Origin: a virus
Lineage: Duplodnaviria; Heunggongvirae; Uroviricota; Caudoviricetes
Length of the DNA: 33,014 nucleotides
Direction: 5' to 3' (one strand)
Virus record (IMG/VR): IMGVR_UViG_2713896896_000010
Coordinates: 1-33,014 of that record
Positions 1-33,014 of this stretch are shown piece by piece. The notes beneath the pieces were generated by a model. The model did no database searches. It was not told the DNA's origin and saw nothing but the letters and a program-made list of their open reading frames with translations. Position 1 is the stretch's first letter, and each line of letters opens with the position of its first letter. Position numbers and translations under genes: made by a program.

Positions 1-270
1 ATGCAGTTGTTGAGACAAGATCTAACCGACCTGTTTGTTCGTCGCGGTCATGACTGGTCAGCAATGGCGATTCAAACGGCATTAAAAAATAAAGGGATTG
101 ATTTACCCACGCTGGAAAAAGCGCAGGGATTAAAACCCGGCTCCATGCGGAATGTGTTTTATCGACCATGTTCCAAATACGAACAGGTAATTGCCCAAGC
201 TGTAGGCGTAACGCCTGATGTGATTTGGCCAAGTCGCTATTTGCATGAGACATCGCAAATAGCGGTGTAA
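1..270 (+). CDS. ner: Ner/Nlp-family DNA-binding regulator (Mu Ner-like)
   Basis: ORF starts at an ATG at position 1. The C-terminal motif ...PDVIWPSRY matches the Ner/Nlp signature as I remember it. It sits immediately upstream of the MuA-like gene, as in Mu. The true start could lie upstream of the window. Confidence 0.75.
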   Translation: MQLLRQDLTDLFVRRGHDWSAMAIQTALKNKGIDLPTLEKAQGLKPGSMRNVFYRPCSKYEQVIAQAVGVTPDVIWPSRYLHETSQIAV

Positions 271-279: not shown

Positions 280-2322
280 GTGTGGTTTGTAGTGCGGGAT
301 TGCCTGGGATTATCCGGTTTTCCATCGGCAGAAAAAAACATCCGGGCACGTCTGGATCGTCTTGCTGAAAATAACCCGGAATGGAAGCGCAAGCGTGAAG
401 GCACCAAAGCATTCGAGTATCACATCGACTGCCTGCCCGCTGAAGCGCAGAAAGTTTTACGTAAGCGCCTGACTCATCAGGTCCTGGAAGATGCGCAACT
501 GCCCGTCGTGGTTGAGCAGAAGGCAGTTAAAAACGTCGCCGTTCGCGATGAACTTGAAGTGATGGTCAAATGCCCGGAGCTGGCATTACGCGAAGTTCAG
601 GCACTGACTGACAAGCAAAAGGCCATCGCTGATGCGCGGATATTACTGGCTACCGAAGTGCATAAACTGCGTGAATATGCCGGAATGACCAGGAAGGCTG
701 CGTTAAAGCACATCGTTGATGGTGTGCGCATGGGGGCGTTACCTGACCGCATTATTGAGGCGGCAAATACCGCAAATGCACGTCAGGGAAAGCGAAGCGG
801 TGTCAGCACCGGCAGCCTGGACACCTGGTACTCCAGCTGGGTGATGGCGCGCGGTGACGCCAATCAGTTACTGGCGTTACTGGCTCCCGGTCATCATAAG
901 GGTACACCGTGGGAGCAGGTCTGGTGGTTGAGCGATTTCTTTATGTTCTATCGCTCATGGAAGCGCCCGACCGTTGAATATGCGTATCGCGAGTTTTCAG
1001 CCTGGTGGCATGAGAAGCACGCGAACGATGCGGGAATGCTGGCAGCACTGCCTTCAGTTCACGCAGTAAGACGGGTGTTAAGCAGCGTCCCGGTGATTGT
1101 TAAGGAGCGTTTCCGCTCCACCGGTTCAGCCTGGCGTTCGCTTAATCCCTTTGTGCGGCGCGACTGGACATCATTACCGGTTAATGCGGTATGGGTTGGG
1201 GATGGTCACTGTATGAAAATGACCGCGTTTAACCCCCTGACCGGTAATATTTTCCGGCCAGAAGTGACGCTGGTTATGGATGCGGGGCAACGCTTTGTTG
1301 TTGGCTGGTCGCTGTCCCTGTCGGAGAACGTGATAGCCGTTGCTGATGCGTTACGTTACGGCATGGCGCAGCACGGGATACCGCTGATTTATTACTCCGA
1401 TAACGGGGGCGGCGAAAAAAACCGGGTGCTTGATGCCGATATTACCGGGATTCTGCCCCGGCTGGGTGTGGAGCATCACACGGGGATACCCGGTAACCCG
1501 CAGGGGCGCGGGGTAATAGAACGGGCAAACAAAGGAATACCCAAAGACGTGGCACTGAGTTTCCAGACGTACTGCGCAAAGGATGCAGACAAGGAAACCG
1601 TAATGATACAGCAACGGATTATGCAGTCAGCCATTAAGGCCACCCACAAAGGGAAAGAGCTGACAAAACGGCAGGTTAAGGCAAGGGATGAAATCCCCAC
1701 CTTTGAGCAACTGATGGCAGCCATAGAGCTGGAGGTCAGACGCTATAACAACCGGCCACACAGCAGCCTTCCCCGCAAAGAGGATGGCGAGCATTACAGC
1801 CCGGCAGCGTATCGCCGGAAACTGATAAAAGAGCAGAATGTTGAAATTGATTTCCTGTCGCCGGAAGAACTGCATGAAATGTTCAGGCCGGAAGTGACGC
1901 GCAAAACATTTCGCGGGGAAATTCAGTTATTCAACAATATTTATTACTCGTATGAGCTGGCCGCAGAGCACGGGAATGAAGTCAGGGTCAGTTACGATAT
2001 TCATGATGCAAACAGTGTCATTGTCCGGCGGGCTGATGGCTCTTATATCTGTGATGCCATCTGGAACGGTAACAAGGTTGATGCCTTCGCTAAACCAGTT
2101 ATCGAACAAAAACTGGAGAAACGCGTCAGGGGCCGCATTGCACGGGCCACGCAGAAAATCGAAGAGGCTAAACGCGAGCTTACCCCGGCTATTACGCAGA
2201 AGCCTGACTTTAATCTGGGATATGGACTGGAACGCCCGGAGAAAAAGGAAAAAGAAGAACTTTATTTATTTGCATCTGAACGCGAACGCAATTTAAAGAA
2301 AAACGGCACAAACAACCGTTAA
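280..2322 (+). CDS. Mu-type DDE transposase (MuA-like)
   Basis: 680-aa ORF with a GTG start, positioned between ner-like and the MuB-like ATPase. Size and position match MuA (663 aa in Mu). DDE residues were not mapped rigorously. Confidence 0.85.
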   Translation: MWFVVRDCLGLSGFPSAEKNIRARLDRLAENNPEWKRKREGTKAFEYHIDCLPAEAQKVLRKRLTHQVLEDAQLPVVVEQKAVKNVAVRDELEVMVKCPELALREVQALTDKQKAIADARILLATEVHKLREYAGMTRKAALKHIVDGVRMGALPDRIIEAANTANARQGKRSGVSTGSLDTWYSSWVMARGDANQLLALLAPGHHKGTPWEQVWWLSDFFMFYRSWKRPTVEYAYREFSAWWHEKHANDAGMLAALPSVHAVRRVLSSVPVIVKERFRSTGSAWRSLNPFVRRDWTSLPVNAVWVGDGHCMKMTAFNPLTGNIFRPEVTLVMDAGQRFVVGWSLSLSENVIAVADALRYGMAQHGIPLIYYSDNGGGEKNRVLDADITGILPRLGVEHHTGIPGNPQGRGVIERANKGIPKDVALSFQTYCAKDADKETVMIQQRIMQSAIKATHKGKELTKRQVKARDEIPTFEQLMAAIELEVRRYNNRPHSSLPRKEDGEHYSPAAYRRKLIKEQNVEIDFLSPEELHEMFRPEVTRKTFRGEIQLFNNIYYSYELAAEHGNEVRVSYDIHDANSVIVRRADGSYICDAIWNGNKVDAFAKPVIEQKLEKRVRGRIARATQKIEEAKRELTPAITQKPDFNLGYGLERPEKKEKEELYLFASERERNLKKNGTNNR

Positions 2323-2340: not shown

Positions 2341-3234
2341 ATGAGTTTAATTACGCAATTAAATGACGTAATGGCCCGTCGCGGCTATACGCAGACCCAC
2401 GTCGCCCGTGCTATTGGTCGTAGTAGCGCCGTTATCAACCAGTATTTACAGGGTAAATATCAGGGCGATATGGCTGATATTGAAGAACGCATTTCTGCCT
2501 TTGTGACCCGTGAGCGGGAAAAAGAAAACAGCCGCCGTATTAAAGCGAAATTTGTTGCCACCGGTATGGCTGCCAAAGGACTGGAGGTGCTGGCCTATGC
2601 TCACCTGGAATGTGAAATCTGCGTACTGTATGGCGCGGCAGGTCTTGGCAAAACAATGATTCTGCGTGAATACGCCGCCAGAAACCGGGATGCGGTCCTG
2701 ATTGAGGCCGATCCGGGCTATACAGCCAGGACACTGCTTGAGGAGCTGTGCCGCCAGTTGGGGGTAAAAGTTCGCGGCAATATCCACGAACTGATTGATG
2801 CATGTGTGCGAGAACTGCGTGATTCCGGTCGCCTGCTGATGGTGGACGAGGCTGAACTGCTCCCCTATCGCGCACTGGAGGTTCTGCGCCGTCTGCATGA
2901 CAAAGCGGGTATCGGGATTGTCCTGGCGGGTATGCCACGCCTTCTGATTAACCTCAAGGGACGTCGCGGTGAGTTCGCCCAGTTATACAGCCGTGTGGCG
3001 CTGGCGCTTAACCTGGGCGATACGCTGTCGCAGGAAGATTTTAACCAGATAGCTACCGGGCTGATGCCGGAAGCAGCAGAACCGGAAATCAGCGAGGCGC
3101 TCTACGCACGCTCGCTGGGTAATGCCCGCCGCCTGTTCAAACTGGCGCGCGGTGTGTACCGGATTTGTGATATCAGCGATGCACCGGTCAGCGTGCAGGC
3201 CATTGATAAATTCGCAGAAATGTTAATTCACTGA
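2341..3234 (+). CDS. Transposition target-DNA activator ATPase (MuB-like, AAA+)
   Basis: 297-aa ORF with a Walker A motif (GAAGLGKT) and a Walker B-like motif (LLMVDEAE), directly downstream of the transposase. Confidence 0.85.
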   Translation: MSLITQLNDVMARRGYTQTHVARAIGRSSAVINQYLQGKYQGDMADIEERISAFVTREREKENSRRIKAKFVATGMAAKGLEVLAYAHLECEICVLYGAAGLGKTMILREYAARNRDAVLIEADPGYTARTLLEELCRQLGVKVRGNIHELIDACVRELRDSGRLLMVDEAELLPYRALEVLRRLHDKAGIGIVLAGMPRLLINLKGRRGEFAQLYSRVALALNLGDTLSQEDFNQIATGLMPEAAEPEISEALYARSLGNARRLFKLARGVYRICDISDAPVSVQAIDKFAEMLIH

Positions 3235-18598: not shown

Positions 18599-18994
18599 AT
18601 GGATCGCAATACCCCCTATCGTGACGGCGAACTGAACCCGGTGCCGGTTGCCGCTGCGACCGAAATTTTTGGCGGTCATATGGTGGCCGTTAACGCATCC
18701 GGTTATGCCGTTCCGGCCAGTGCCACGGCCTCACAGATTACGCTGGGCGTGTCTGATGGCTGGGTGGATAACAGCAAGGGCAGCGATGGCGACGCCACCG
18801 TTCTGGTGCGTTGCGGCAAAGCCTTTCTGATGGCGAACAGCACCTCAGACCCGGTCACGCAATCGCAGGTCGGCAAGCTGTGCTACGTGGAAGACAGCGT
18901 GACCGTGGCAAAAACCGACAACAGCAGCGCCCGTCCTGTCGCCGGGAAAGTGATCGGCATCGGTGGCGATGGCGTCTGGGTTCATTTCAGTTAA
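18599..18994 (+). CDS. Hypothetical head-associated protein
   Basis: 131 aa, between the protease/scaffold and major capsid genes. TAAATG overlap with the upstream gene. Confidence 0.5.
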   Translation: MDRNTPYRDGELNPVPVAAATEIFGGHMVAVNASGYAVPASATASQITLGVSDGWVDNSKGSDGDATVLVRCGKAFLMANSTSDPVTQSQVGKLCYVEDSVTVAKTDNSSARPVAGKVIGIGGDGVWVHFS

Positions 18995-19004
18995 GGAGCG
19001 AAAC

Positions 19005-19913
19005 GTGTTAGTCAACGTTAAAAACGTCAAACAGATTTTTATCAATCTGAAGGCCACTTTCCAGAAAGCCTTCGACCAGTCACCAACTGACTGGCAGAAG
19101 GTGGCAATGGAAGTGCCATCAAACGGCAGGGAAAACGACTACAGCTGGTTAAATCGTTTCCCGAAAATGCGCGAGTGGATTGGTGACAAGGTCGTTAAAT
19201 CACTGGCGGCATTTAACTACACCATCCGTAACAAGGACTGGGAAGCCACGGTTGAAGTCGATCGTAACGACATCGAGGACGACCAGATTATGGGCTATGC
19301 CCTTCAGGCAAAAGGAGCCGGACAGTCGGCGGCAGAGCTACCGGCAGATATTGTGGCATCCCTTATCAGTAACGGTTTTACCAACCTCTGTTACGACGGA
19401 CAGCCGTTCTTTGATACCGACCACCTGGTCGCCGGTAAATCGGTGTCGAACAAGAGCACCAAAAAACTCAAAGTGGGGTCGCTTGCTGAAGCGAAAGCCT
19501 CCTACGGTGCTGCCCGTACTGCCATGCGCAGCCTGAAAGATGACGAAGGCGCATCCCTCAAAATTCGCCCGGATCTGCTGGTTGTGCCACCGGCGCTGGA
19601 AGATGACGCGAACTACCTGATGACCGCCGAGAAGTTCCCGGACGGCACGCCGAACCCATACCGCGGTACTGCCGACGTGCTGGTGATGCCGGAGCTGGCG
19701 TCGGATTCCGCATGGTTCCTGTTTGACACCACTAAACCGGTGAAACCGCTGATTTTCCAGCAGCGCAAGAAACCGGTCTTTGTGGAGCAGACGGACTACA
19801 GCAGCGACAACGTGTTCAAGCGTAAGAAATTCCTGTTTGGTGCCGAAGCGCGCTGTAACGGCGGTTACGGCTTCTGGCAGATGGCATTTGGTTCAGATGG
19901 TACGACGGAGTAA
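19005..19913 (+). CDS. Major capsid protein (Mu T-like)
   Basis: GTG at 19005 preceded by AAGGAG at 7 nt. This is an internal start of track ORF 18963..19913. Confidence 0.7.
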   Translation: MLVNVKNVKQIFINLKATFQKAFDQSPTDWQKVAMEVPSNGRENDYSWLNRFPKMREWIGDKVVKSLAAFNYTIRNKDWEATVEVDRNDIEDDQIMGYALQAKGAGQSAAELPADIVASLISNGFTNLCYDGQPFFDTDHLVAGKSVSNKSTKKLKVGSLAEAKASYGAARTAMRSLKDDEGASLKIRPDLLVVPPALEDDANYLMTAEKFPDGTPNPYRGTADVLVMPELASDSAWFLFDTTKPVKPLIFQQRKKPVFVEQTDYSSDNVFKRKKFLFGAEARCNGGYGFWQMAFGSDGTTE

Positions 19914-19916
19914 TGC

Positions 19917-20258
19917 ATGGAAAAAGTGATTGAAATTACCGCCCGCCGTGAGGGGTTTCGCCGCTGCGGTGTGGCACACAGCGCAACCACGAAGGCATGG
20001 CCTATGGATGCGTTCACCCCGGAACAGCTGGCGGTGCTGAAGGCTGACCCCATGCTGATTGTGGTGGAACGTGATAAAGCGTCCGGCCAGAACGACGCGG
20101 CCCGGGGTAATGAGCTGGCCGCACAGCTGGATGCCGAACGCCAGAAAGTCAGCGGCCTGACGGCACAACTGGAAGAAGAACGCCAGAAAGTCAGTGAACT
20201 GACCGCACAACTGAACGCCGCACAGAAAACACAAAAAGCTGACAAAAAGGAGAAGTAA
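19917..20258 (+). CDS. Hypothetical coiled-coil protein with an internal tandem repeat
   Basis: 113 aa. A 14-aa unit ERQKVSxLTAQLxx occurs twice, encoded by 42-bp tandem repeats at about 20136..20215. Confidence 0.5.
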   Translation: MEKVIEITARREGFRRCGVAHSATTKAWPMDAFTPEQLAVLKADPMLIVVERDKASGQNDAARGNELAAQLDAERQKVSGLTAQLEEERQKVSELTAQLNAAQKTQKADKKEK

Positions 20259-20261
20259 CCC

Positions 20262-20693
20262 ATGTCTTACGCCACACCGGAACAGTTCATCAGGGCGTTC
20301 AGTGAGCGCGAGGCGCGCACACTGACGGATGAAGACATGACGGGATTCATCGACGAAGAAAAACTGGCCTCCGCGCTTGCGCGTGCCAGTGCCCAGATTG
20401 ATGGCTATCTGGTGGGGCTTTACCGGACCCCGTGGCCTGACAGCCCGGGGATTCTGGTGGGTTACTGCTGCGATATCGCCCGCTATCACCTGGCGACCGA
20501 TTACCGTATCAGCTCAGAAGAAATTCAGATGCGCTACCGGGACGCCATCCGCTTTCTGGAGAAAGTCGCGGCAGGACAAATCAACCTCGGACGGGATACG
20601 TCCGGCAGCGTGATCCAGTCATCGTCACAGGTGCGTATCCGTTCCGGCTCCCGTCAGTTCGGGCGGGAGTCCACGCGGGGAGGTGCATTCTGA
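20262..20693 (+). CDS. Head-tail connector-like protein (Mu gp36/DUF1320-like)
   Basis: 143 aa. Position and size match Mu gp36. Memory-based. Confidence 0.55.
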   Translation: MSYATPEQFIRAFSEREARTLTDEDMTGFIDEEKLASALARASAQIDGYLVGLYRTPWPDSPGILVGYCCDIARYHLATDYRISSEEIQMRYRDAIRFLEKVAAGQINLGRDTSGSVIQSSSQVRIRSGSRQFGRESTRGGAF

Positions 20694-20746
20694 TTACTGA
20701 AATTGAACGGGCGCTGGTTGAGCGTCTGCGTTGTGGTCTGGGTGAA

Positions 20747-21328
20747 ATGGTGCGGGAAGTCCGCACCTATGCCGGTGAACTGGATGAAGATCCGGGCCGG
20801 ATTGTTCGCAGCCTTCCGGCAGCCTGGGTGACGTTCGGCGGCATCGTGAAAACCGAACGCTATTCCACGTCACGCCGGAAATACATTGCCACCGGACGCT
20901 TTGTGGTTGTGGTGGGTGATTACAACACCCGCAGCGAACAGAGCGCCAGACAGGGAGGCACGGTCCGGGATGAGGTCGGTACAAACCTGCTGGTTGAATC
21001 CGTCCGCCGCCTGCTGACTGGTCAGGATTTGGGGCTGGAGATTGATTATTTCGAACCCGGGCGGGTCAGGACGCTGTTTAACACCGGCGTGTCAGAGCGG
21101 GCAATGTCCGTGTTTGCCTGTGAGTTCGATACCCGCTGGGTGGAGCACGCACAGGAGAACGGCAAATGGCCGGAGCGCGGCGCAGAAGCGGACCGTCTCT
21201 TCAACCACTACCACGGCAGGCTGTCAGACCCTGACCCGGATTTACTGCGAATTGGTACGCAATACGGCGCAGATATCTGTGGTCTGGATGAATTAAGAGA
21301 GCAACAGCATGAACAAAATGAAGGTTAA
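20747..21328 (+). CDS. Mu gp37/DUF1834-like protein
   Basis: 193 aa, coordinates from the track. My manual base counting near 20746..20821 disagreed with the track by one base, which I attribute to my reading error; I defer to the track. Confidence 0.55.
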   Translation: MVREVRTYAGELDEDPGRIVRSLPAAWVTFGGIVKTERYSTSRRKYIATGRFVVVVGDYNTRSEQSARQGGTVRDEVGTNLLVESVRRLLTGQDLGLEIDYFEPGRVRTLFNTGVSERAMSVFACEFDTRWVEHAQENGKWPERGAEADRLFNHYHGRLSDPDPDLLRIGTQYGADICGLDELREQQHEQNEG

Positions 21329-21542
21329 GGCGGCTCCCGGGATGAAGTTCCCGATGGAGGATAACGCCCGAAAATACATCACCACGGAAGCGGTGACCGT
21401 TGAGAACACCGCTTATTACCGGCGCGCCGTTCAGGACGGTGACCTGATTCTGGTGGCTGAAGAGCCTGAAACGGCTGAACAGGACACCGGCCCGGAAAAA
21501 ACGAAGGCGAAGAAAGAGAAACAGGTGGGTTCCAATGAGTGA
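21309..21542 (+). CDS. Hypothetical small protein
   Basis: 77-aa ORF overlapping both neighbours, just upstream of the tail sheath gene. Confidence 0.45.
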   Translation: MNKMKVKAAPGMKFPMEDNARKYITTEAVTVENTAYYRRAVQDGDLILVAEEPETAEQDTGPEKTKAKKEKQVGSNE

Positions 21543-22956
21543 AATTCAGTTTGACACCATTTCGGGCAGTATCCGTAAGCCCGGTGTGCATTTTGAGTTT
21601 AATACCCGGCTGGCCGTTAACACGTTGCCGGGTAACGAACAGCGTGTTCTGGTGATTGGCCCGATGCTGCCTGATGGCACCGCCACACCCCTGAATGCGG
21701 TTTCCGTGTATTCCGAAGACGAAGCGGATTTGTATTTCGGGGCCGGTTCACTGGCTGCAGCAATGGCGCGCGCGGCCATTAACGCCAACAGCTATCTGCA
21801 ACTGGATGTTATCGGTATTGCAGACGGTGGTGCAGGAAAAGCGGCAACAGGCGCAGTTAAAGTCACCGGCACTGCAACCAGCAGCGGTACGCTGTCGGTA
21901 TGGATTGCTGGCGAGCAGATCGCCATTAATGTGGACGTCGGGGATGAACCGTCGAAAATCATTCCGGCACTGGTGACGGCAATGACGCAGACGCCATCGC
22001 TTCTGGTTACGGGGGAATACAAATCTGACACCTCTCAACTGACAGTGACCGCCCGGACCAAAGGTACCTGGGGGAATGATATCTCCCTGTCGGTATCCAC
22101 CACTGCAACCGGCCTTGTAGTGGCTACCACGCCGATGGCGAGCGGCGAAATGGACCCGGATATTCAGCCCGCACTGGATGCGGTCTTTGCTGCCGGTCAC
22201 AACATTCTGATTTGTCCGTTCAGTACCGCGCCAGCCCTTGCGGCCCTGAAGCAGCATCTGGAGAAAACCGGGAACGCGATGGAACAGCGCGGCGCGATTG
22301 GCTGTGCGGGCTGGACGGGCAGTCTCGGAAACGGGATCACCCTGGCAGCCGGTGTAAACAGCGGGCGCGTGTCCGTCCCCTGGTATCGCGGCTCCGTGAA
22401 GCTGCCAGCTGTGCTGGCTGCCATCTACGGCGCAGTGATGGCGAGCGAGGAAGACCCGGCACGTCCGCTGAACTCGCTGGCGCTGTCCGGGCTGGATGTG
22501 GTCGCCATGTCACAGCGTGAAAGCCGTAACGAGCAGGAAAACGCCCTGCATAACGGCCTGACACCGGTTGAGGTTGGCCCGGGTAATACGGTGCAGATTG
22601 TGCGTGCGGTCAGTACGTACACGGTTAACGCACAGGGCGTGACTGATGTCTCGTTACTGGATATCACGTCCATCAGAACGCTGGACTACACCCGCAAGGC
22701 GTGCCGTGAACGCATCAGCCTTCGCTTCCCGCGCGAAAAACTCAGCACCCGAACCATCGCAAAAGTGGAAAGCGAACTGTATGACGTGCTGATCAAGCTG
22801 GAGGAAGCGGAAATTCTGGAGAACGTGGAAGCGAACAAGGCAAAGCTGCGCGTTCAGCGAAACGGGAAAGATGCAAACCGTCTCGACTGCGCGGTTCCGG
22901 CGGATGTGGTTAACGGTCTGCATGTGTTTGCCGGTCGCATCGACATGATTTTGTAA
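21535..22956 (+). CDS. Tail sheath protein (Mu L-like)
   Basis: 473 aa, followed by the tube gene. Typical contractile-tail order. Confidence 0.8.
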   Translation: MSEIQFDTISGSIRKPGVHFEFNTRLAVNTLPGNEQRVLVIGPMLPDGTATPLNAVSVYSEDEADLYFGAGSLAAAMARAAINANSYLQLDVIGIADGGAGKAATGAVKVTGTATSSGTLSVWIAGEQIAINVDVGDEPSKIIPALVTAMTQTPSLLVTGEYKSDTSQLTVTARTKGTWGNDISLSVSTTATGLVVATTPMASGEMDPDIQPALDAVFAAGHNILICPFSTAPALAALKQHLEKTGNAMEQRGAIGCAGWTGSLGNGITLAAGVNSGRVSVPWYRGSVKLPAVLAAIYGAVMASEEDPARPLNSLALSGLDVVAMSQRESRNEQENALHNGLTPVEVGPGNTVQIVRAVSTYTVNAQGVTDVSLLDITSIRTLDYTRKACRERISLRFPREKLSTRTIAKVESELYDVLIKLEEAEILENVEANKAKLRVQRNGKDANRLDCAVPADVVNGLHVFAGRIDMIL

Positions 22957-22968
22957 GGAGCCTGATAA

Positions 22969-23343
22969 ATGTCTCTGCATGAATACATTGGCTCGATTGT
23001 GCTGGAGGTGGACAGCCAGGAAATCGAGATCACCGACCTTGATGTTCAGATCAACACTGGGCGCAAACTGGTCAAGACCATGAACAAAACCGGCAGGGCC
23101 AAAGGCTTTGCCCGGGGCATTGGCACCTACGAACTGTCCGTTTCGGCGGTGATCCCTGATACCAACGAGCCGGACTGGGAAAACCTTGAAGGTGTGAAAA
23201 TCTCGCTGTACCCGCTCAGTAAAAGCGGCAAACGCACCTCCTATCTGGACTGCTTCACAATCGAAGTGGGTGAAAAATACACCGTCGATAATGAAGCAAA
23301 AATTGATATCAAACTGGCTGCACTCAGGAAGGTGACAGGATGA
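22969..23343 (+). CDS. Tail tube protein (Mu M-like)
   Basis: 124 aa, directly downstream of the sheath gene. Confidence 0.7.
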   Translation: MSLHEYIGSIVLEVDSQEIEITDLDVQINTGRKLVKTMNKTGRAKGFARGIGTYELSVSAVIPDTNEPDWENLEGVKISLYPLSKSGKRTSYLDCFTIEVGEKYTVDNEAKIDIKLAALRKVTG

Positions 23344-23741
23344 CTTTGATTAATACACAGACCGGCGAACTGTCTGATGGCGTGGTGTTTAACGGCACCG
23401 TTCATAAAAGCTTTGAACTGCGTCTCCCGGTCATGCGTGATAACGGGCAGGCACTGGAAGAAACCGAAGAACGCTTTCAGACGGTGGATGGCTTCGCGGC
23501 GGATTATTACTACCGCTGTGCGGTGATGGCGGCAACGCTGGTCCGCCTGGGGGATATCCCGCAGGAAGAACTGACGGCGGAGCTGTTGCACGACAACATG
23601 ACGCTGGAAGATTTTAATGTTCTGATGGCAGCACGCGACATCCTGAAGGTAAAGCGGAACGGCGGGAATCCCGGCTCGCCGGACTCCGGTTCGCAGTCCT
23701 TATCCTCGGGCGCTACGGAATCACCGAAGAACAAATCATGA
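23340..23741 (+). CDS. Tail assembly chaperone (Mu gp41-like)
   Basis: 133 aa, between the tube and tape measure genes. The -1 frame stays open from 23618 to 23895. Confidence 0.6.
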   Translation: MTLINTQTGELSDGVVFNGTVHKSFELRLPVMRDNGQALEETEERFQTVDGFAADYYYRCAVMAATLVRLGDIPQEELTAELLHDNMTLEDFNVLMAARDILKVKRNGGNPGSPDSGSQSLSSGATESPKNKS

Positions 23742-23885
23742 CCATGAGCCGTCCCGAGCTGGACGGCTGGCTCGCCGCCGTTGACAGGCTGAACGGTGGC
23801 GGCTCAGGAAGAAAGGACACCTCACAGACCACCCGCCAGTCATTTAAATCCCTCAGAAAGAAACGCAGAAAAGGTAAGCAGAAAA

Positions 23886-26156
23886 ATGGCCGGTAATTTC
23901 AAAGTTGGCATGACCCTGACAGCGAAGGACGAAGCCTCGCAGGTTCTGGAAAAGGGACAAAAACAGGTTATCAAAGCCACCGAAGGTGTAACAAAGGCAA
24001 CACGGAAGGCAGGCGCAGAGCAGAAGCGTACCGAGCAGGAAAGCGTTAACAGCACGAAAAAGGCCGCAAAAGAGATACAGCGTGCCGCCCGTGCCCGGGA
24101 AACGCTCGGTATTCGTGCAGAACGCGAGATCCGGCGTGAAATTTATCTGACGGTCGCCAGCTATAACCGTCTGGCCCGTGCCGGTTTTGAATCTGCGCAG
24201 GAGCAGGAGCGCGCCATGCAGGCAACCCGGGAAAAAGCCCGGGCACTCAAGCGGGAACTGGATGGCGTTACTCAGGCACAGATGAAGATGGCGAAAACGC
24301 CTGTTATCCCCGAGCGGGGGCGTTTTGCACGTGCGGCTGCATTTGGCGGGAACGCCGTGACAATAGGCGGTGGTATCGCAGCAGGTGCTGCCATTATGGC
24401 GCAGCCGGTCAAAAAGCAGATGAGCTACGAACGCCAGCTGGCAATGATGGCCAATACCGCCTTCAGTGATGGTGGGCTGGAGGGGCGCAGGGCTGGTCTT
24501 GAGCAGATGAAAAGCAGTATCCGTAACGCGGTAACCTATGGTGGTGGCACGAAAGAGGATGCGGCTGAAACGCTGGATGCCCTGCTGAAAGACGGCATTT
24601 CATTTGAAACAGCCAGTAAGTGGCTGCCTGAACTGATGAAATACGCCACGGCTTCTGGTGCATCTGCAACAGACCTGGCCAACGTAATGGTCAAGGGTAA
24701 AAAGACCTTTGGATTCAGGGATGAAGATATTTCCACCGTTCTGAATATGGCGATTGCGGCGGGGAAAGAAGGCAGCTTTGAACTGAACGATATGGCGCAA
24801 TATTTATCGTCACAACTTGGGGCTGCTGCCAATGCCGGGATGAAAGGCAAGGATGATTTCGTCAAGATTCTGGCGCTGAATGAAGCCGCAGCGATTACAG
24901 CTGGTAACAGCAGCGAAGCCGGAAATAACGTATTTAACCTGCTGGCAAAACTGACCAGTAAGGATATTGAAACAGCAGCTGCGGGAATAAATTACAACGG
25001 TAAGGGCATCGACTTTGCAGGAACGTTGGTAGAAGCGCGCAAGAACGGGCTTGATCCGATAGACGCGCTGTCCAGCCTGATAGACAAAATCGTTGCCAGC
25101 GATAAACGCTATCAGGAGCTGCAAAAGAAACTGGCATCCGCCCGGGACAAAGGCGAGCAGACGGCTGTTTATGATTCGATGGTAAAACTCCTTGAAGGTT
25201 TTGGTGTCGGGAAACTGGTTGCAGACCAACAGGCGTTAAAGGCGTTGCTGGCTTATCGTAACAACCCGGAATACCGGAAAAAGGTTGAAGATGCGATTAA
25301 TCAGCAGCGCACCCTGCCGGAAGGTCAGCGCGCGGGTGATGTGGATTTCGAATTCACGTCAGGCACGAATGATTTTAAAACCGAACAGGCTAAAAACACG
25401 CTTGAATTTTCACAAATGGACAGCGTGAAAAAGCTGGCTGATGCGTCCGGTACTGTGGCTGATGCCATAAGCTGGGCGGGTGAAAAGTTCCCGGGACTGA
25501 CCACGGCAGTGGTGGGGGCCACGACCGCCATTGAAGCGATGACCGCAGCGGCTCTGACATGGGCCGGGATCAAAATCCTGACCGGGGGGAAACCCGGTGG
25601 CAAGGCCGGCGAGGTTGTCGGTGATGTAATTGAAAATACGGTCAAAAAAGGCAAAGGATTTAAATTCCCCGGCATTGCCGGTAGCCTGCTTTCTTTCGGT
25701 GGCTCCGTTACGGCACTGGCCACCGCAACCAGCCCGGAAGAAGACGCCGCCGTCGAAGGCAGCGAAGAACGCTGGAAACGCATCCGTGCCCGATACCCCC
25801 AGGAAATCATCGACGCCGCCCGCAAAAAATACCAGCCGTGGTGGCAGTTTGGGGAAGGCTATTCCACCGAAAACGAAGAGTGGTTGAGGCGCTGGGAGGA
25901 AGACAGGAAAAAAGCGGCAGCTGATGCCCTGCCATCACCAGAGCAGGTTAACAAATCCGCAGGAAACACAACGCCTGAACCGGTATCAACGCAACCCGGA
26001 CGCATCACCCAGCCGGAATACCTCACGCACTGGGGACCACCTGCCAGCCCCATTAATTTCACCACACAACTGGTGCTCGATGGTCAGGTCGTGGCGGAAG
26101 CGGTGAACAAATACAACCTTCAGGACGGTAACAGAGGCACGGGAGGAACTTACTGA
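23886..26156 (+). CDS. Tail tape measure protein
   Basis: Long, Ala/Gly-rich, helical ORF after the chaperone. ATG at 23886 preferred over the track start, which is a GTG at 23796. Confidence 0.75.
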   Translation: MAGNFKVGMTLTAKDEASQVLEKGQKQVIKATEGVTKATRKAGAEQKRTEQESVNSTKKAAKEIQRAARARETLGIRAEREIRREIYLTVASYNRLARAGFESAQEQERAMQATREKARALKRELDGVTQAQMKMAKTPVIPERGRFARAAAFGGNAVTIGGGIAAGAAIMAQPVKKQMSYERQLAMMANTAFSDGGLEGRRAGLEQMKSSIRNAVTYGGGTKEDAAETLDALLKDGISFETASKWLPELMKYATASGASATDLANVMVKGKKTFGFRDEDISTVLNMAIAAGKEGSFELNDMAQYLSSQLGAAANAGMKGKDDFVKILALNEAAAITAGNSSEAGNNVFNLLAKLTSKDIETAAAGINYNGKGIDFAGTLVEARKNGLDPIDALSSLIDKIVASDKRYQELQKKLASARDKGEQTAVYDSMVKLLEGFGVGKLVADQQALKALLAYRNNPEYRKKVEDAINQQRTLPEGQRAGDVDFEFTSGTNDFKTEQAKNTLEFSQMDSVKKLADASGTVADAISWAGEKFPGLTTAVVGATTAIEAMTAAALTWAGIKILTGGKPGGKAGEVVGDVIENTVKKGKGFKFPGIAGSLLSFGGSVTALATATSPEEDAAVEGSEERWKRIRARYPQEIIDAARKKYQPWWQFGEGYSTENEEWLRRWEEDRKKAAADALPSPEQVNKSAGNTTPEPVSTQPGRITQPEYLTHWGPPASPINFTTQLVLDGQVVAEAVNKYNLQDGNRGTGGTY

Positions 26157-27505
26157 TGGGCTGGGCTGAAAATCTGCAAAACGCTTCCTTTCGCGGCGTG
26201 CAGTTTGATGTGCTTAACACGGATGAACAAATCAGCCGCGACCATGCGGTCTATGAATACCCGTTTGTTGACGGGGCAGATTTGCACGACCTCGGACGCA
26301 AGGCGCGACCGTTCCGCATGACGGCGTTCCTGTGGGGGGAGTATTACGAATACAAACTCGAAAAGCTGACCGCCGCCCTGGACGAAGGCGGCGATGGTGA
26401 GCTGATTCACCCGATTTATGGCTCCGTACCGTCGGTGATTGTAACCGGCTACAGCATCCGCCATGACGCAGAAAGCCCGGACAGCTGCACTATTGACATG
26501 AGTTTTCTGGAGAACCGCACCGACAGTGCGCTGTTCAGCACCCCGTTACCGGAGTTGTTTGCACAGCAGCTGTTTGAAGAACTGGATAAGTTACTGGCAC
26601 AGTTAAGCGAGTTTTTTGAAGCTGTTACGGCCCCTTTAAAGACCATTAACAGCGTAATAAAAAAAATCCAGACAGTGCGCGCCACACTGGTGAATACCCT
26701 GCTGACGTTCAAAAGCGATTTTATCACCTCTGTCGATAATATGATGTCACTGGTCAGCGAGCCCGGAAAGTTTATCGGTGGACTGGCAGAGGTGCTGGAA
26801 ATCCACACGTCAGATGTCGGGCACGCGGTGCCGGTTCTGGCGCGTACTGATTCCGCCACCACGACCGGACTGACCGGAGAGGACAGCGTCGCCAGTTCTG
26901 CGACCGTGATGACCTGCTGGAATAAGGTGATGGCAGATATGGATGAACTGGTCGCGCTGCCGGTCGCACTGGTCAGCGGTGATAAAACGCCGTCTGTGGC
27001 ACTTCCGCCGGATGCTTCCGTGGAAGACGTGCAGGACGTGAAAGCGGCTTATGCGGTTCTGGCAGCTTCCGAACTGGCCAGCGTGGCAACGGCAGTACTG
27101 TCCGATGGAGCCCAGTCAGAACAGCTTATACCGGCGGATATCGGGCGACTGGTCGGGGATGTGCGCACCCGCTTACAGGCAGCCATCACGCTGTTCCGTG
27201 AACGCTATGAAGGCGAACGCGAACGGATAACTGAAACCGCATCACCGCTGGGACTGATGTACCCGGAAATCATTCAGAGCATAAAGAACGTGGCGGCATC
27301 CGTGCAGGATATCGGCCTGCTGGTGCTTTCACGCCGCCCACCGCTGACGCAGAAACAGGTGCAGGCGGACAGCTGTCTGCTGTTGCTGGCGTGGCAGTGG
27401 TACGGCGATTACAGCCGTGCGGCAGAGCTGCAACGCCTGAACCCGCAACTGCGTGACCCGAACAATATAACCGCCGGGATGGTGATTAATGCCTGGACAA
27501 AATAA
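26156..27505 (+). CDS. DNA circulation protein (Mu N/gp43-like)
   Basis: 449 aa in the Mu N position after the tape measure gene. Confidence 0.65.
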   Translation: MGWAENLQNASFRGVQFDVLNTDEQISRDHAVYEYPFVDGADLHDLGRKARPFRMTAFLWGEYYEYKLEKLTAALDEGGDGELIHPIYGSVPSVIVTGYSIRHDAESPDSCTIDMSFLENRTDSALFSTPLPELFAQQLFEELDKLLAQLSEFFEAVTAPLKTINSVIKKIQTVRATLVNTLLTFKSDFITSVDNMMSLVSEPGKFIGGLAEVLEIHTSDVGHAVPVLARTDSATTTGLTGEDSVASSATVMTCWNKVMADMDELVALPVALVSGDKTPSVALPPDASVEDVQDVKAAYAVLAASELASVATAVLSDGAQSEQLIPADIGRLVGDVRTRLQAAITLFRERYEGERERITETASPLGLMYPEIIQSIKNVAASVQDIGLLVLSRRPPLTQKQVQADSCLLLLAWQWYGDYSRAAELQRLNPQLRDPNNITAGMVINAWTK

Positions 27506-28700
27506 CGAAGACAAAATCAGCCTGGTCATTGCCGGAAGGTCGCATTCTGACTGGAGCAGTTATCGTATTGACAGCGATTTCCTGAAAGCCGCCGACGGCT
27601 GGCAGCTTCAGCTGGGGCTGCCTGAAAAGGTGTTCCCGGCGGATATCGTCCGGGGCGCGCCAGTCCGGTTGCAGGTGGGAGACGAAACGGTGCTCAGTGG
27701 TCGCGTGGACAGCGTGCGCCGCAGTGTATCCCGTCAGAGCTGCACGCTGACGCTGTCCGGGCGTGATGATGCCGCCATTCTGGTGGACTGTGCCGCACCG
27801 GTGTTCAGCGCCAACCAGCTGACACTGGACGAGGTCATCGACAGGATAGTCAGACCGCTGGGGATACAGCGCATCCGTATTCAGGCATCCGGTGTGTCAC
27901 GTAATGACAAGGTCGTTATAGAGCCGGGAATGCGTGCGTGGGATGCACTGGCTAAAGCTGCCGCCGGTCGCGGCTTATGGCCGTGGTTTGAGCCTGACGG
28001 GACGCTGGTTGTGGGTGGCCCTGACTACACCACCACGCCGGTGGATACGCTGATTCTGAAGCTGGACGGCACCGGGAACAACGTGATGGAGCTGGACGAC
28101 ACCCGGTCCATTAACGGCTGCTTCTCCGAACTGACTGTACTGGCCCAGAGCCACGCCCGCCGCGCAGACAGCAAAAAACAGGTGGCCACAGTGCCTCTGG
28201 ATATCTGGAACGAGGACGGCAGCGTGCGCACATTATCCGGGCGGGACGGTGGTAATACGGACAGTGGTCAGACAGGCATTCATAACATGAAAGCCGTGGC
28301 CACCGACCCCACCGTGGATTATTACCGCCCGCAGATTATTACCCAGGGCGACACCAGCAACATGGAACAGGTGAACTGGCGCGCCAAAAAAATGATGAGT
28401 GATGCCCGCCTGTCCGGGCTGGATATCGTCGCACTGGTTGCAGGTCATCGCACGGCGGACGGTGTCCTGTGGCAGCCCGGACAGCGTGTGCGGATTGTCA
28501 GCGAACCCCACGGCATTGATGCCATCTTTTTCCTGATGGGGCGTGAGTTCAGCGGAGGCCGCAACGGGCAGACAACCCGGCTCCGTTTTAAGGAGGACGG
28601 CGTGTGGATACCTGATGCCTTCCCGCGCGAGAAGAAACGCCATCACCGCAGGGGCAAAAAGAAAAAAGAGGTCGCCATTGTTAAGGTCTGGGAGAAATGA
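27489..28700 (+). CDS. Baseplate/tail protein (Mu P/gp44-like)
   Basis: 403 aa. Position and size match Mu P. Confidence 0.7.
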   Translation: MPGQNNEDKISLVIAGRSHSDWSSYRIDSDFLKAADGWQLQLGLPEKVFPADIVRGAPVRLQVGDETVLSGRVDSVRRSVSRQSCTLTLSGRDDAAILVDCAAPVFSANQLTLDEVIDRIVRPLGIQRIRIQASGVSRNDKVVIEPGMRAWDALAKAAAGRGLWPWFEPDGTLVVGGPDYTTTPVDTLILKLDGTGNNVMELDDTRSINGCFSELTVLAQSHARRADSKKQVATVPLDIWNEDGSVRTLSGRDGGNTDSGQTGIHNMKAVATDPTVDYYRPQIITQGDTSNMEQVNWRAKKMMSDARLSGLDIVALVAGHRTADGVLWQPGQRVRIVSEPHGIDAIFFLMGREFSGGRNGQTTRLRFKEDGVWIPDAFPREKKRHHRRGKKKKEVAIVKVWEK

Positions 28701-29350
28701 TGTGGGACAAAGTTAATCAGCGCGTACAGCAGGCACTGGCCGCCGTTCGTCAGGCATTCAGGGTGGTGACCGGTACGGTAGACAGTTCGACCAAAGTACA
28801 GTTGCTTCAGCTTAACGGGCTGGCCGGCGAACAGCTGGACGGTGCGGAGTATTTTCAGCATTACGGCCTCACCACATCCCCGCCGCCCGGCTCAATGGGT
28901 ATTGCCGTTCCGCTGAATGGTAATACCTCCCATACCGTCGTCGTGGCCACAGAGCACGGCGCATATCGCCTGACGGAACTGAAGCCCGGCGAGGTGGCCC
29001 TGTATACCGACGAAGGCGCAAAAATCGTACTGAAGCGCGGGCGGGTTATTGAGCATGAATGTGATGTTTATCGCGTGAAATGCAAATGCTATGAGGTTGA
29101 GGCAGAGGAGAACGCCGCATTCACGACACCGTTACTGACGGCCAGCGATAAGCTGACGGTGGAAGGTAAAATCACCGGCAACGGTGGCATGGCCATCCGC
29201 GGAGGCAAGGAATACGCCGCCACTTTTGAAGGCAACATCAACCATGTGGGTGGTGTGCTTACCTCCGTTGACGTCACCATTAATGGCGTTAAAATCGGAA
29301 CACACAAACACGATACCCCTCACGGCATATCCGGCCTGCCGCATAATTAA
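28697..29350 (+). CDS. Baseplate spike/assembly protein (gpV-like, Mu gp45-like)
   Basis: 217 aa. N-terminal region typical of gpV-type spike proteins as I recall them. Confidence 0.65.
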   Translation: MMWDKVNQRVQQALAAVRQAFRVVTGTVDSSTKVQLLQLNGLAGEQLDGAEYFQHYGLTTSPPPGSMGIAVPLNGNTSHTVVVATEHGAYRLTELKPGEVALYTDEGAKIVLKRGRVIEHECDVYRVKCKCYEVEAEENAAFTTPLLTASDKLTVEGKITGNGGMAIRGGKEYAATFEGNINHVGGVLTSVDVTINGVKIGTHKHDTPHGISGLPHN

Positions 29351-29375
29351 GTGCTGAACACCCTCACCTGATTCT
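29349..29375 (+). promoter_or_regulatory. Conserved motif copy C (core GTGCTGAACACCCTC)
   Basis: 15-nt exact match to copy B. Lies in the 53-bp gap between the spike gene and the next baseplate gene. Confidence 0.3.
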
Positions 29376-29403
29376 GACCTGTCCATGCTGCCAGACTGGC
29401 GGC

Positions 29404-29754
29404 ATGGACCAGACGATTTCACCTGCAACCGGCGACTACGAACGCCGCCGGATTTACACACTCCATAACGCGGTTTATCTGCGACTGGCGACACCGCTTG
29501 GCAGTTACTGGGCGGATGCGTCGCTGGGGTCACGCCTGCACGAGCTGAAGCGGGAAAAAGACGTTCCCCGTGTTCACAGACTGGCGGCGCAGTATGCCAG
29601 CCAGGCACTTCAGCCACTGCTCGATGACGGGCGGGCAAAAGCCATTACCGTTGACACAAAACCGGGCCAGCGCGGCTGGCTGTTGCTGTTAATCACCGTC
29701 ACGGATAACGCGGGCACACCGCAGACGTTTGAACACCCTGTGAGGATTATGTAA
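29404..29754 (+). CDS. Baseplate protein (Mu gp46-like, gp25/W-like)
   Basis: 116 aa. Size and position fit the gp25/W-type baseplate wedge protein. Confidence 0.55.
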   Translation: MDQTISPATGDYERRRIYTLHNAVYLRLATPLGSYWADASLGSRLHELKREKDVPRVHRLAAQYASQALQPLLDDGRAKAITVDTKPGQRGWLLLLITVTDNAGTPQTFEHPVRIM

Positions 29755-30833
29755 TGCCGTTTCCTGTTCCGGGCGTTGCTGAAAACACAGAACGCCAGCT
29801 ACGTGATATCGCTAACGCCCTGCCGGGTGAAACCATCGACACCGGCGCAGACAGTGATTACCGCATTCGTGCAAATGCAGTATCCGGCGTGGCTGACGGG
29901 CTTTATATGCATCAGGGCTGGATACTCCGACAGGTGTTTCCTGACACGGCAGCCCCTGAATATCTGGAGCTGCACTGTCGCACGCGCAATGTTTTTCGTA
30001 AAAAAGCAACGGCCTCATCCGGTCCGGCGGTGATTACCGGCACACCAGGTAAGACACTGCCAGCTGGTGCAGAAATTCGTGGTGAAGGTGTCAGTGTGAC
30101 CACCACAGCAGACTGCATCGTCGGTGATGAAGGCAACGCAGAGGTGACGGTAAAAAGTACCACCACAGGAGCACGGACGAACGCATCCGCAACGCAGACG
30201 GCGACACTGGTCAGCCCGCCGGAAGGCATCAACAGCACGGCGACGATTAAATTCCTGACCGGTGGAACGGACAACGAGAGCGACGCTGATCTGCTGGTGC
30301 GTTATCTGGATATTCTGCGCAGGCCTCCTGCTGGCGGTAACAAATATGATTACAAACGCTGGGCGCTGGAAGTTGATGGTGTTACCTCTGCGTACGTAGA
30401 GCCGTTACGTCGTGGCCCCGGCACGGTTGATGTGGTTATCACTTCTGCAAATGATTTACCGTCACAGGAGCTGATTAACGCGGTTATGGCCCATATCAAT
30501 GATGTCCGCCCGGTAACGGCGAAGGATACAATGGTACTGGCACCAACGAAAAAAAACGTTGACTTTGTTGTCAGGATAAAAACCAGTGGCCTTACTGTTG
30601 AACAGATAAAACCACAGATAACTGAAGTTATCACGGATTTTATGAACCGACTGGAGCCGGGGCAGGAATTAATTATTTCACAACTGGAAACTCAGATTTC
30701 ATTAATTTCTGGCGTCAGTGATCGGCGGGTTATTATGCCGTCAGATAATGTAAAAGCAGTTGTCAATGAATCCACATGGGAGTGGCTGCGTCCGGGGAGT
30801 ATTGATATCCAGCCATTTCCCCGGGAGAGTTAA
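29754..30833 (+). CDS. Baseplate J-like protein (Mu gp47-like)
   Basis: 359 aa in the baseplate module. The C-terminal third is visibly AT-richer by eye. Confidence 0.75.
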   Translation: MPFPVPGVAENTERQLRDIANALPGETIDTGADSDYRIRANAVSGVADGLYMHQGWILRQVFPDTAAPEYLELHCRTRNVFRKKATASSGPAVITGTPGKTLPAGAEIRGEGVSVTTTADCIVGDEGNAEVTVKSTTTGARTNASATQTATLVSPPEGINSTATIKFLTGGTDNESDADLLVRYLDILRRPPAGGNKYDYKRWALEVDGVTSAYVEPLRRGPGTVDVVITSANDLPSQELINAVMAHINDVRPVTAKDTMVLAPTKKNVDFVVRIKTSGLTVEQIKPQITEVITDFMNRLEPGQELIISQLETQISLISGVSDRRVIMPSDNVKAVVNESTWEWLRPGSIDIQPFPRES

Positions 30834-30836
30834 TAC

Positions 30837-31409
30837 ATGAATACGGTTGATTTATTTCGTGCCATGTTACCGCCGGTCAGCTATGACCCGAACGGGAAAT
30901 ATATTTCAGCAGAGCTGAACGCAGAAGCAGCCATTATGGATGAAGTAAAAGCGTCAGCTGCACGAGTGCTTGCATCTGTCACACCATTTTATGCATCCAT
31001 GACGCTGTCTGACTGGGAACGAGTATATGGAGTAATACCCCGCGACGGTGCCACACAGCAGGAACGCCGAGAAAATATTCTTATAAAGATGGCTGCAACT
31101 GGTGGGTTATCCATCCCTTATTTTAAACAACTTGCAGCCAGCCTCGGATACACCATAACAATTACTGAACTTCATCCATTCAGAACGGGGGTAAACCGAT
31201 GTGGTGATCGCCTCTATATAACAGATGCCCGCTGGATTTGGCAGGTTAATGTCACAGGAAGCAGAACGCCAGCTTATAGATTCAGAACCGGAGTATCTGC
31301 AACCGGGGAACCGTTACTTTCCTTTGGTGCTCCTGTTCTGGAAGAAACATTTAAAGATCTTAAACCCGCTTTTACTTATTGCTATTTCACATATAAGGAG
31401 AAGCAGTAA
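30837..31409 (+). CDS. Tail protein, DUF2313/YmfQ-like (Mu gp48-like)
   Basis: 190 aa, between the J-like and tail-fibre genes, as in Mu and e14. Confidence 0.65.
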
Positions 31410-31723
31410 TGCAAAACCTGATGCCCCAGATAAATACACCAGACAAATTGTTCCATGATGGTGACCCAACTCAGGGGATAGAAGGAACCATCGTGACAGC
31501 TGATTATATGAATAATCAGCAGGGAGCAACCCGTGATTTGCAGCAGGAACTCCTTAATGTTCTAAGTAGTGCGCATATTCAACCTGATCCAAAAAAAACG
31601 GATCAACTACTTACTGCACTTTGTGCGCTACTGTTAAGCCGTAAGAATCCGTTTGGCGACATCAAATCAGATGGCACGGTGAAAACGGCTCTCGAAAGTA
31701 CCGGATATGAACAGCTTTGGTAA
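31409..31723 (+). CDS. Tail fibre, N-terminal constant part
   Basis: 104 aa. The pattern ...[25 protein letters not shown] resembles conserved tail-fibre N-terminal domains. Ends in a stop 17 nt after the next ORF begins. Confidence 0.55.
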
Positions 31724-32006
31724 CTCATTGACCGCCAATGGATACCAGAAATTACCTGGGGGGATGATTATTCAATGGGGGAATTTTTCTGTCTCACCAA
31801 CCGGAGGAAGTGTTGGAACAGTTGATATAACATTACCTGTAGCTTTCCCAGCGGCTTGTCGTTCGGTAAATGCTCTTATTTCAACTAATGATCCTTCTGC
31901 CCGTTCTGTGGGCTTTGATATTGGAAGTACCAACAGAACTAAAATCAGATTTACTTACACTTCTGCTACAATAAATTCAATTTACTGGATGGCTGTAGGG
32001 TATTAA
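31707..32006 (+). CDS. Tail fibre, C-terminal variable (receptor-binding) part in a different frame
   Basis: 99 aa. [15 protein letters not shown] looks like the start of a tail-fibre C-terminal domain. No obvious Shine-Dalgarno before its ATG. Confidence 0.5.
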
Positions 32007-32008
32007 CT

Positions 32009-32440
32009 ATGGAAAAGACATATTATTTTAATCCCTCTGATTCGGGGTTTTATATTTCACCAGATAGCCAAACCATTCCTGAGAACGCTACGAAAATAAA
32101 CTTTACTATTTATTCTGAGTTCGCAGGAGTTGCATGGCCTGATGGTAAAATACTTGGTTCAGATAAAAATGGTTTTCCAATATGGCAGGATGCGCCACCA
32201 CTTACCAGCGAAGAATTAATCACAATCGCTGAATCAAATAAACAGCGATTAGTTAATCAGGCCAACGAATACATGAACAGTAAGCAATGGCCCGGTAAAG
32301 CCGCTATTGGCCGTCTGAAAGGCGAGGAACTGGCGCAATATAATCTGTGGCTGGATTATCTGGACGCACTGGAACTGATTGATACCTCCAGTGATCCAGA
32401 TATTGAATGGCCTACGCCTCCGGCAGTTCAGGCCAGATGA
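32009..32440 (+). CDS. Tail fibre assembly protein (Tfa)
   Basis: 143 aa. C-terminal LWLDYLDALELIDTSSDPDIEWPTPP is typical of Tfa chaperones. Confidence 0.7.
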   Translation: MEKTYYFNPSDSGFYISPDSQTIPENATKINFTIYSEFAGVAWPDGKILGSDKNGFPIWQDAPPLTSEELITIAESNKQRLVNQANEYMNSKQWPGKAAIGRLKGEELAQYNLWLDYLDALELIDTSSDPDIEWPTPPAVQAR

Positions 32441-33014
32441 CATCCGGCGCGGTGCTGGTATCTGTTGCCGTCACCGCGTCAATGTAATCCAGCACAGCGT
32501 TAAGTCTGGTTGTTTCTGCCTGCGTCAGTTTACGTCCGGCCTGCAATTTCAGTTGAATCAGACTGGTGGAAGCCATTGCAGTATCAATCAGCGACTGGCG
32601 CTGTACTTCTGCTGCATCTACTGCGGCGCTGTGCTGTGCCTCGGTATCCGTCACCCATTTCTCACCATCCCATTTATCGTATGACGTTAACGGAGCGAGA
32701 GTGGTTGTATTTTCAGGATAATCTCCCGGTACTGTAATTTCTTTTGCTTCTCCTGTTTCAGTGTTATAGACCGTTTCACCGCGATGGTCTGGCACGTACT
32801 CCCATGAGTTTAAATCTGCTGAACGGCAGATAGCATAACCAGCTTTATGTGTGCCAGGTGCATCTAAACAGGAATACGCCGGAATACCAACACCTACAGC
32901 AAGAAATTCGGTTGATGCAGAAATATATTCCCTTGTCTCACTGTTATAGTTGTAAACGATAATGTTTCCTTCCTGTACGGCAATAAGCTCATTGTTTAAT
33001 ATCGCGTTATTCAT
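32412..33014 (-). CDS. Alternative tail fibre assembly protein (Tfa'), convergent
   Basis: 200 aa on the minus strand. C-terminal LNAVLDYIDAVTATDTSTAPDVIWPELP parallels the + strand Tfa. Its ATG is the last three bases of the window, so anything upstream is unseen. Confidence 0.7.
   Translation of the reverse strand: MNNAILNNELIAVQEGNIIVYNYNSETREYISASTEFLAVGVGIPAYSCLDAPGTHKAGYAICRSADLNSWEYVPDHRGETVYNTETGEAKEITVPGDYPENTTTLAPLTSYDKWDGEKWVTDTEAQHSAAVDAAEVQRQSLIDTAMASTSLIQLKLQAGRKLTQAETTRLNAVLDYIDAVTATDTSTAPDVIWPELPEA

Follow-up and report, generated by a model that had tools for sequence, protein, structure and literature searches.

A probable Pin/Gin-type invertible tail-fibre segment at the right end of a Mu-like transposable prophage, with one crossover site apparently hidden in a scaffold gap

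The stretch of viral DNA analysed here (IMG/VR record IMGVR_UViG_2713896896_000010; 33,014 nt, hereafter referred to as the window) ends in a tail-fibre module spanning positions 31409-33014. This region very probably represents the left two-thirds of an invertible tail-fibre segment of the Pin/Gin type (Din family), which lies at the right-hand end of a transposable, Mu-like prophage. According to the mechanism that we propose, a serine invertase encoded just beyond the segment would recombine two inverted 26-bp sites, one lying within the fibre gene and the other at the far end of a segment of ~1.8 kb, and the inversion would swap the C-terminal receptor-binding tip of the fibre together with its chaperone. 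In the orientation of the window, the constant part of the fibre (Sc) would be joined to a gp53-like tip (216 amino acids, aa) and used with Tfa (143 aa); in the flipped orientation, the same Sc would be joined to a collar-domain tip (247 aa) and used with the TfaE-like Tfa' (200 aa).

Domain names given below come from a Pfam profile scan of the proteins, and L-numbers denote the comparison loci. The module is organized as follows:

30837..31409, + strand: baseplate gene of the Mu gp48 / YmfQ family (Pfam Phage_Mu_Gp48, E 2e-30), with the fibre gene immediately downstream.
31409..31696, + strand: constant N-terminal part of the fibre (Sc), codons 1-96, unchanged upon flipping of the segment.
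31698..32006, + strand: variable fibre tip (Sv) with a gp53-like C-terminal domain (Pfam Gp53-like_C, E 1.8e-18).
32009..32440, + strand: Tfa (counterpart of TfaP), chaperone of the gp53-like tip, 143 aa (Caudo_TAP, E 3e-28).
32412..33014, - strand: Tfa' (TfaE orthologue), chaperone of the alternative collar-domain tip, 200 aa (Caudo_TAP, E 1.4e-31).
32350-32367 / 32476-32493, no strand: 18-nt imperfect inverted repeat flanking the Tfa/Tfa' overlap; the same pair occurs in L003-L005.

A preliminary description, made from the letters alone, had proposed the order Sc, variable tip and Tfa on the + strand followed by a convergent Tfa' on the - strand, with the two Tfa genes overlapping at their 3' ends (32412..32440). 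The open reading frame (ORF) map agrees with this order, Pfam confirms the identities, and the overlap between the converging genes amounts to 29 nt. The last position of the window coincides exactly with the ATG of Tfa'. The search on NCBIfam gave no specific name to any of the proteins scanned, all matches being below the cut-off.

A first line of evidence comes from near-identical prophages in which the segment lies in the opposite orientation. An exact look-up of the Tfa' protein led to six loci, including L006 (BBVE01000014.1, assembly GCA_001514555.1), which is the source record of the window. The same prophage is carried by L003 (CP117628.1, a complete genome) and L005 (BEZW01000025.1). 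Positions 22152-31697 of the window align with positions 1-9546 of these two loci in the same orientation, with an identity of 99.93% (L003) and 100% (L005); positions 31698-33014 align with positions 11317-10001 in the inverted orientation, with an identity of 99.8-99.9%. The colinearity with L003 and L005 (99.9-100%) stops exactly where Sc ends, and in L003 the same 96 codons run into a different tip. Of the gene parts within the invertible segment, Sv comes first, and in L003 and L005 it is inverted and adjoins the invertase. Since the flanks are the same and the segment is inverted between the window and L003/L005, the prophage exists in both flip states, with the window and L006 in one orientation and L003 and L005 in the other (the comparison being between strains and not between cells of one culture). 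Moreover, the flanks of L005 and of the window are 100% identical in spite of the opposite orientations, which implies a very recent flip.

As found, L003 has Sc joined to the collar-domain tip (Sv') in a product of 247 aa, and Tfa' comes next; the opposite strand carries Tfa and the gp53-like tip. When the 1816-bp segment of L003 between the centres of its two sites (9550/9551 and 11366/11367) is inverted in silico, the resulting sequence matches the window, together with the 235 nt by which the record extends beyond it, in two colinear blocks; exactly 53 nt of it are absent from the window. Both L003 fibre products are open, that is, 247 aa as found and 216 aa (Sc plus the gp53-like tip) after the in-silico inversion.

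The second line of evidence is represented by the crossover sites, written here as 12+2+12 in the reading direction of the fibre:

L003, left site: CTCTCGAAAACC TT GGTTTGGGGGAA
L003, right site: AAGTTAAAAACG TT GGTTTGGGAGAA
e14, left site: CTCTCGAAAACC TT GGTTTGGGAGAA
e14, right site: TTTTCATAAACG TT GGTTTGGGAGAA
Mu, gix site: TTATCCAAAACC TC GGTTTACAGGAA

The inversion repeat of e14 has been published as TTGGTTTGGGAGAAGG, with a P segment of 1797 bp (PMC12529663). A search for 26-bp inverted sites at both ends of the segment, which the preliminary description had recommended, found such Din-type sites bounding it in L003 and L005, the left one matching the e14 site in 25 of its 26 bases, and none in the window. 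The site as a full sequence reads AAGTTAAAAACGTTGGTTTGGG, and inverted sites with an AAACC-NN-GGTTT-type core are present in L003, L005, L001, L002, and e14. The left site falls inside the fibre ORF, at codons ~94-102 (…ALENLGLGE…), and the chaperone gene of each tip is inside the segment. The orientation breakpoints fall exactly on the 26-bp sites, whose common inverted core is only ~21 nt long. The 18-nt imperfect repeat listed above (32350-32367 / 32476-32493), which could be mistaken for a recombination site, was rejected as such, as we read it as a conserved C-terminal Tfa motif (LDYLDA / LDYIDA) encoded on opposite strands.

The third line of evidence is the recombinase. In both L003 and L005 the segment is followed by an intact invertase of 188 aa (starting with MQIGYIRVSTNDQ…), with a Resolvase domain (E 2e-52) and an HTH_7 domain (E 5.7e-11). 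The L003 protein is 81% identical to PinE and 75% identical to Gin, shares with both the N-terminal motif YIRVSTNDQ, and matches the sequence of the Gin crystal structure (PDB 4m6f) with an E of 4e-88; a search for its homologues retrieved cluster representatives with up to 94% identity. Systems of the Din family have a Fis-dependent recombinational enhancer located in the 5' part of the invertase gene, with two Fis sites ~48 bp apart. One match to the Fis consensus, centred at nt 78, is conserved in the L003 invertase gene, pinE, and gin, and no second one lies 48 bp away in L003, the consensus being highly degenerate. The flipped copies, the bounding inverted sites, and the adjoining serine invertase in L003 and L005 together support the interpretation of the region as an invertible segment, and the assignment to the Mu G / e14 Pin type, already put forward in the preliminary description, is borne out by both flip states, the Din-type sites, and the PinE/Gin-like enzyme. 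The same description had placed the second tip and the invertase beyond position 33014. As for the former, the further 235 nt of the record represent its 3' end, and the tip is present in L003 and L005; the latter does follow the segment in these two loci, but in the source strain the contig ends before that region.

As the preliminary description had noticed, there is no recognisable crossover site in the window. Indeed, the Din-type core pattern AAACSNNSGTTT has 0 matches in the whole 33-kb window, and no convincing bounding inverted repeat was found in it. We attribute this absence to an assembly gap rather than to a biological peculiarity. At 31697/31698, exactly 53 nt (…AACCTTGGTTTGGGAGAAGCGGCAAAAAGGAATGTGGGGACAGGAGAAAATCAG), including the left 26-bp crossover site, are missing; this stretch is present in every relative. 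The gap is seen both against L002 and against the L003 sequence inverted in silico, and in the alignment with E. coli prophages of ~91% identity the window lacks the 53 nt that follow …GGCTCTCGAAA. In the relatives, these 53 nt carry TCGAAAACCTTGGTTTGGGAGAAG, the inverted copy of which sits at the far end of the segment. They would fall between CTCGAAAACCTTGGTTTGGGAGAAGCGGCAAAAAGG and ATCAGGTACCGG, and their absence gives the direct junction CTCGAAAGTACCGG (CTCGAA-A-GTACCGG). A feature that had gone unmentioned is that the fibre gene in the window is broken into two frames, 31409..31723 (104 aa) and 31707..32006 (99 aa); putting the 53 nt back yields an intact, open fibre of 216 aa. The apparent frameshift is thus due to the omission of the 53 nt at the scaffold gap.

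The comparison with the source record is in line with this explanation. Positions 22412-33014 of the window differ from L006 at one position out of 10,603 nt, namely 31697, which is an "A" in the window and an "N" in the record. That N is the only one in the L006 locus (10.8 kb) and falls exactly at the 53-nt break. Several scaffolders insert a lone N where they join two contigs whose overlap is unresolved. We read the missing site and the split fibre gene as assembly artefacts, that is, as a scaffold gap and not a deletion, with the N changed to A during the preparation of the window; in the source strain, the left site falls in this gap, and the right site lies beyond the end of the contig. 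The junction sequence is contiguous in 0 of 5,426 complete E. coli genomes, where the four full-length matches all carry the additional 53 nt, and it was found neither in IMG/VR nor in metagenome contigs; L002 and the IMG/VR locus L013 have the junction intact. The 104-aa fibre product encoded by the window is not on record, as expected if the product of the record has an X at the codon where the window has an S.

The record extends only 235 nt past the window and stops within the second tip, its end lying 9 nt from a 62-nt exact repeat common to two collar tips in L005. This suggests that the source strain may also hold a second copy of the repeated collar-tip sequence, and a third tip may be present there, judging from the place where the contig ends. 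Breaks at the same sites are seen in other short-read assemblies: L008 is a contig of 1796 nt corresponding exactly to the segment interior, with the GAAG of a site at either end, and L007 is similar. Contigs equal to the segment interior and ending at the crossover sites are a general signature of such switches in short-read assemblies. By comparison with the sister loci, we infer that the source strain would carry the same left site, the N-terminus of the second tip, the right-hand site, and the invertase.

Some observations weigh against the interpretation given so far. The contig of the source strain stops short of the 5' part of the second tip, the right-hand site, and the invertase, none of which was therefore observed in it. 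Furthermore, it is conceivable that the single N stands for an ambiguously called base and not for a gap, in which case the 53-nt loss would be real. Lastly, there are related E. coli prophages in which the invertase was lost or reduced to a stub (L001 and L002), so that an inactive switch in the source strain is possible.

Two further readings, which we consider unlikely, go beyond this interpretation: in the orientation of the window, the silent collar tip might be produced separately, as a chimeric protein that masks a surface receptor for the benefit of the host, or the source strain may have a three-tip, three-site switch like that of L005. As for the former, the silent collar tip in L003 sits behind a 10-codon leader (MLLDSSVFEVKN): at 11404-11009 (- strand), an ATG of its own, which precedes the right-hand site by 30 nt, opens an ORF of 131 aa (MLLDSSVFEVKNVGLGE…). 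The layout is the same as that of e14 stfE and of the "StfE2" chimera, which has been reported to mask a surface receptor and to block phage T2 (PMC12529663). A scan for sigma-70 promoters of the L003 silent tip found no sigma-70-like promoter. As for the latter, L005 harbors a third collar-type tip of 172 aa (11373-11891, - strand), without a chaperone of its own, between the gp53-like tip and the invertase, and a third crossover site (the sites being at 9545, 11361, and 11848); this would allow more than two fibre states in L005. The third tip shares with the second one a region of 239 nt, 84% identical, which includes the 62-nt exact run.

A further alternative is that the loss of the 53 nt is a real deletion: the left site would be gone, the fibre frameshifted, and the switch locked, leaving a decaying prophage with no functional fibre. 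The window as given, with two ORFs in different frames and no site, is what one would see in this case, and locked relatives with a lost or truncated invertase do exist (L001 and L002). Nevertheless, we regard a deletion as quite improbable: the only N in 10.8 kb of the public record stands exactly at the junction; none of the other assemblies searched (E. coli genomes, IMG/VR, and metagenome contigs) contains the junction; the remaining prophage is 99.9-100% identical to copies with an intact fibre gene; and this contig has another break, at a repeat, after a further ~1.5 kb. Moreover, the end points of the supposed deletion show no microhomology and do not lie at the central TT where a serine invertase cuts, and on these grounds both an invertase-mediated deletion and a slippage deletion were rejected as the origin of the loss.

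It is likewise improbable, slightly more so than a deletion, that the convergent Tfa pair is a static fossil, with the opposite orientations resulting from a rare historical event (RecA recombination or an orientation error in the assembly) and with no active switch. Some relatives do lack a working invertase, and the Fis-consensus match in L003 is a single one, without a partner 48 bp away, albeit for a degenerate consensus. On the other hand, the breakpoints lie exactly on Din-type sites, whose inverted core of ~21 nt is in our judgement not long enough for homologous recombination to be efficient; next to the segment, L003 and L005 encode an intact full-length invertase with YIRVSTNDQ; and the orthologous e14 segment flips measurably in culture (PMC4272514, PMC12529663). 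The 100% identity of the flanks in opposite orientations (L005 versus the window) in particular makes a fossil unlikely.

Shufflons of the R64 type employ the Rci tyrosine recombinase acting on many 19-bp sfx repeats in pilV. The label of shufflon, which the preliminary description had used, was rejected, as the recombinase adjoining the segment in the sister loci is a serine invertase of the resolvase/invertase family and not an Rci-type enzyme.

Returning to the interpretation as a Pin/Gin-type invertible segment, the closest known system is the P segment of e14 in E. coli K-12, which has the same order, i.e., ymfQ-stfP-tfaP on one strand and tfaE-stfE converging on the other, followed by pinE. 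The ymfQ gene holds the same position as the gp48-like gene of the window (30837..31409), and the overlap of tfaP with tfaE, 29 nt, is as long as that of Tfa with Tfa'. TfaE is 86% identical to Tfa' over 200 aa, TfaP is 65% identical to Tfa in the C-terminal half only, StfP is 40% identical to the fibre in the window orientation, and the StfE tip is 56% identical to the collar tip; the segments are 1797 bp (e14) and 1816 bp (L003) long. The two elements differ in their context, as e14 is a defective lambdoid remnant, whereas the prophage analysed here is Mu-like, transposable, and seemingly complete. The expressed tip and its Tfa have also diverged more from their e14 counterparts than the other parts compared. 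Furthermore, unlike e14, the relative L005 has a third tip and a third site.

The G segment of Mu (S/U, S'/U', and Gin) likewise belongs to a transposable genome, where the switch follows gp47 and gp48 at the right end. The two systems share their logic, with a constant fibre part, two tip-plus-chaperone cassettes, and a downstream serine invertase, as well as the AAACC-NN-GGTTT site core; however, the flanks of the sites and their central dinucleotide differ (TT here and TC in Mu), the S protein of Mu (504 aa) contrasts with the short fibre found here (216 or 247 aa), and U and U' do not overlap, unlike Tfa and Tfa'. The Mu baseplate genes are distant homologues (27-34%) of those of the prophage. 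BLASTP of both Tfa proteins against U and U' gave no match, and the only similarity of the fibre to Mu is 38% over 74 aa of the N-terminal part. Since neither Tfa resembles U or U' and the sites differ from gix, the element is not a Mu G segment proper: judging from sequence, it would function like the G segment, and it sits where that segment does, yet by descent it is a cassette of the e14 P type. Inversion systems of the Din family with multiple sites comprise the C segment of P1/P7 with Cin and the Min system of p15B, which the three crossover sites and three alternative tips of L005 resemble.

As for the genomic context, the window encodes a Mu-like transposable prophage that is seemingly complete, with MuA, MuB, and the Mu head and tail genes. 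In addition to the fibre module, it includes the following features:

1..270: small ORF upstream of the transposase, ner-like by position alone.
280..2322: MuA-type transposase.
2341..3234: MuB-like ATPase.

The Mu portal, the F, I, and T head proteins, and the sheath and tape-measure genes are located within positions 12276-26156, and the Mu-type baseplate row from gp44 to gp48 is present in the prophage (Pfam). The fibre module occupies the place of the Mu G segment; the prophage is a mosaic, combining a Mu-like genome with an e14-type fibre module instead of the Mu S/U genes. A scan of genome contigs with the gp48 protein for related loci retrieved only two distant matches (a Burkholderiaceae metagenome-assembled genome and Snodgrassella). 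The host is probably Escherichia albertii: L004 (CP043262) is among the E. albertii genomes of PMC10673567, and next to its prophage L003 has host genes with 88% identity to ycgR-emtA-ldcA-cvrA of E. coli, a value that we judge typical of E. albertii.

The module was also observed, with some variations, in other relatives. The E. coli prophages of ~91% identity have an intact fibre of 215-227 aa, followed by Tfa, a convergent Tfa', and a second tip on the minus strand. In L001 (7278-8220) there are two tandem collar tips and three sites, with no invertase and with truncated genes and an integrase instead, and in L002 (7035-7100) only an invertase pseudogene of 66 nt is left; both appear to be locked. 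A P2-like prophage, L004 (8885-11370), harbors the same Sv'-Tfa'/Tfa-Sv cassette, with the invertase directly beside Sv'. Its far end carries a hybrid half-site (…GCTGTTC TT GGTTTGGGAGAA), with host genes beyond it, and gene D is inverted relative to FI-U; an aberrant recombination at a secondary site appears to have produced this arrangement.

These results call for some caution in genome scans, as short-read assemblies break at invertible segments or bridge them with a single N. If the N is turned into a base, the outcome looks like a frameshifted fibre gene next to a switch without a recombination site, and annotating this record as it is would lead to the fibre being wrongly called a pseudogene.

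Textbooks have covered invertible fibre-tip segments and their Pin/Gin invertases since the 1980s, and the element described here, an orthologue of the e14 P segment on a Mu-like prophage, would have little biological consequence in this respect. From the comparison with the sister loci, the invertase would flip the 1.8-kb segment, probably with Fis, and the switch would be active. The two fibres, in turn, may confer different adsorption specificities and a different host range on the phage: in Mu, alternative fibres give different adsorption specificities (PMC4406740), and a change in adsorption specificity has been assumed for e14 (PMC4272514). If the three-tip version of the switch were true, more than two fibre states would be possible with only two chaperones.

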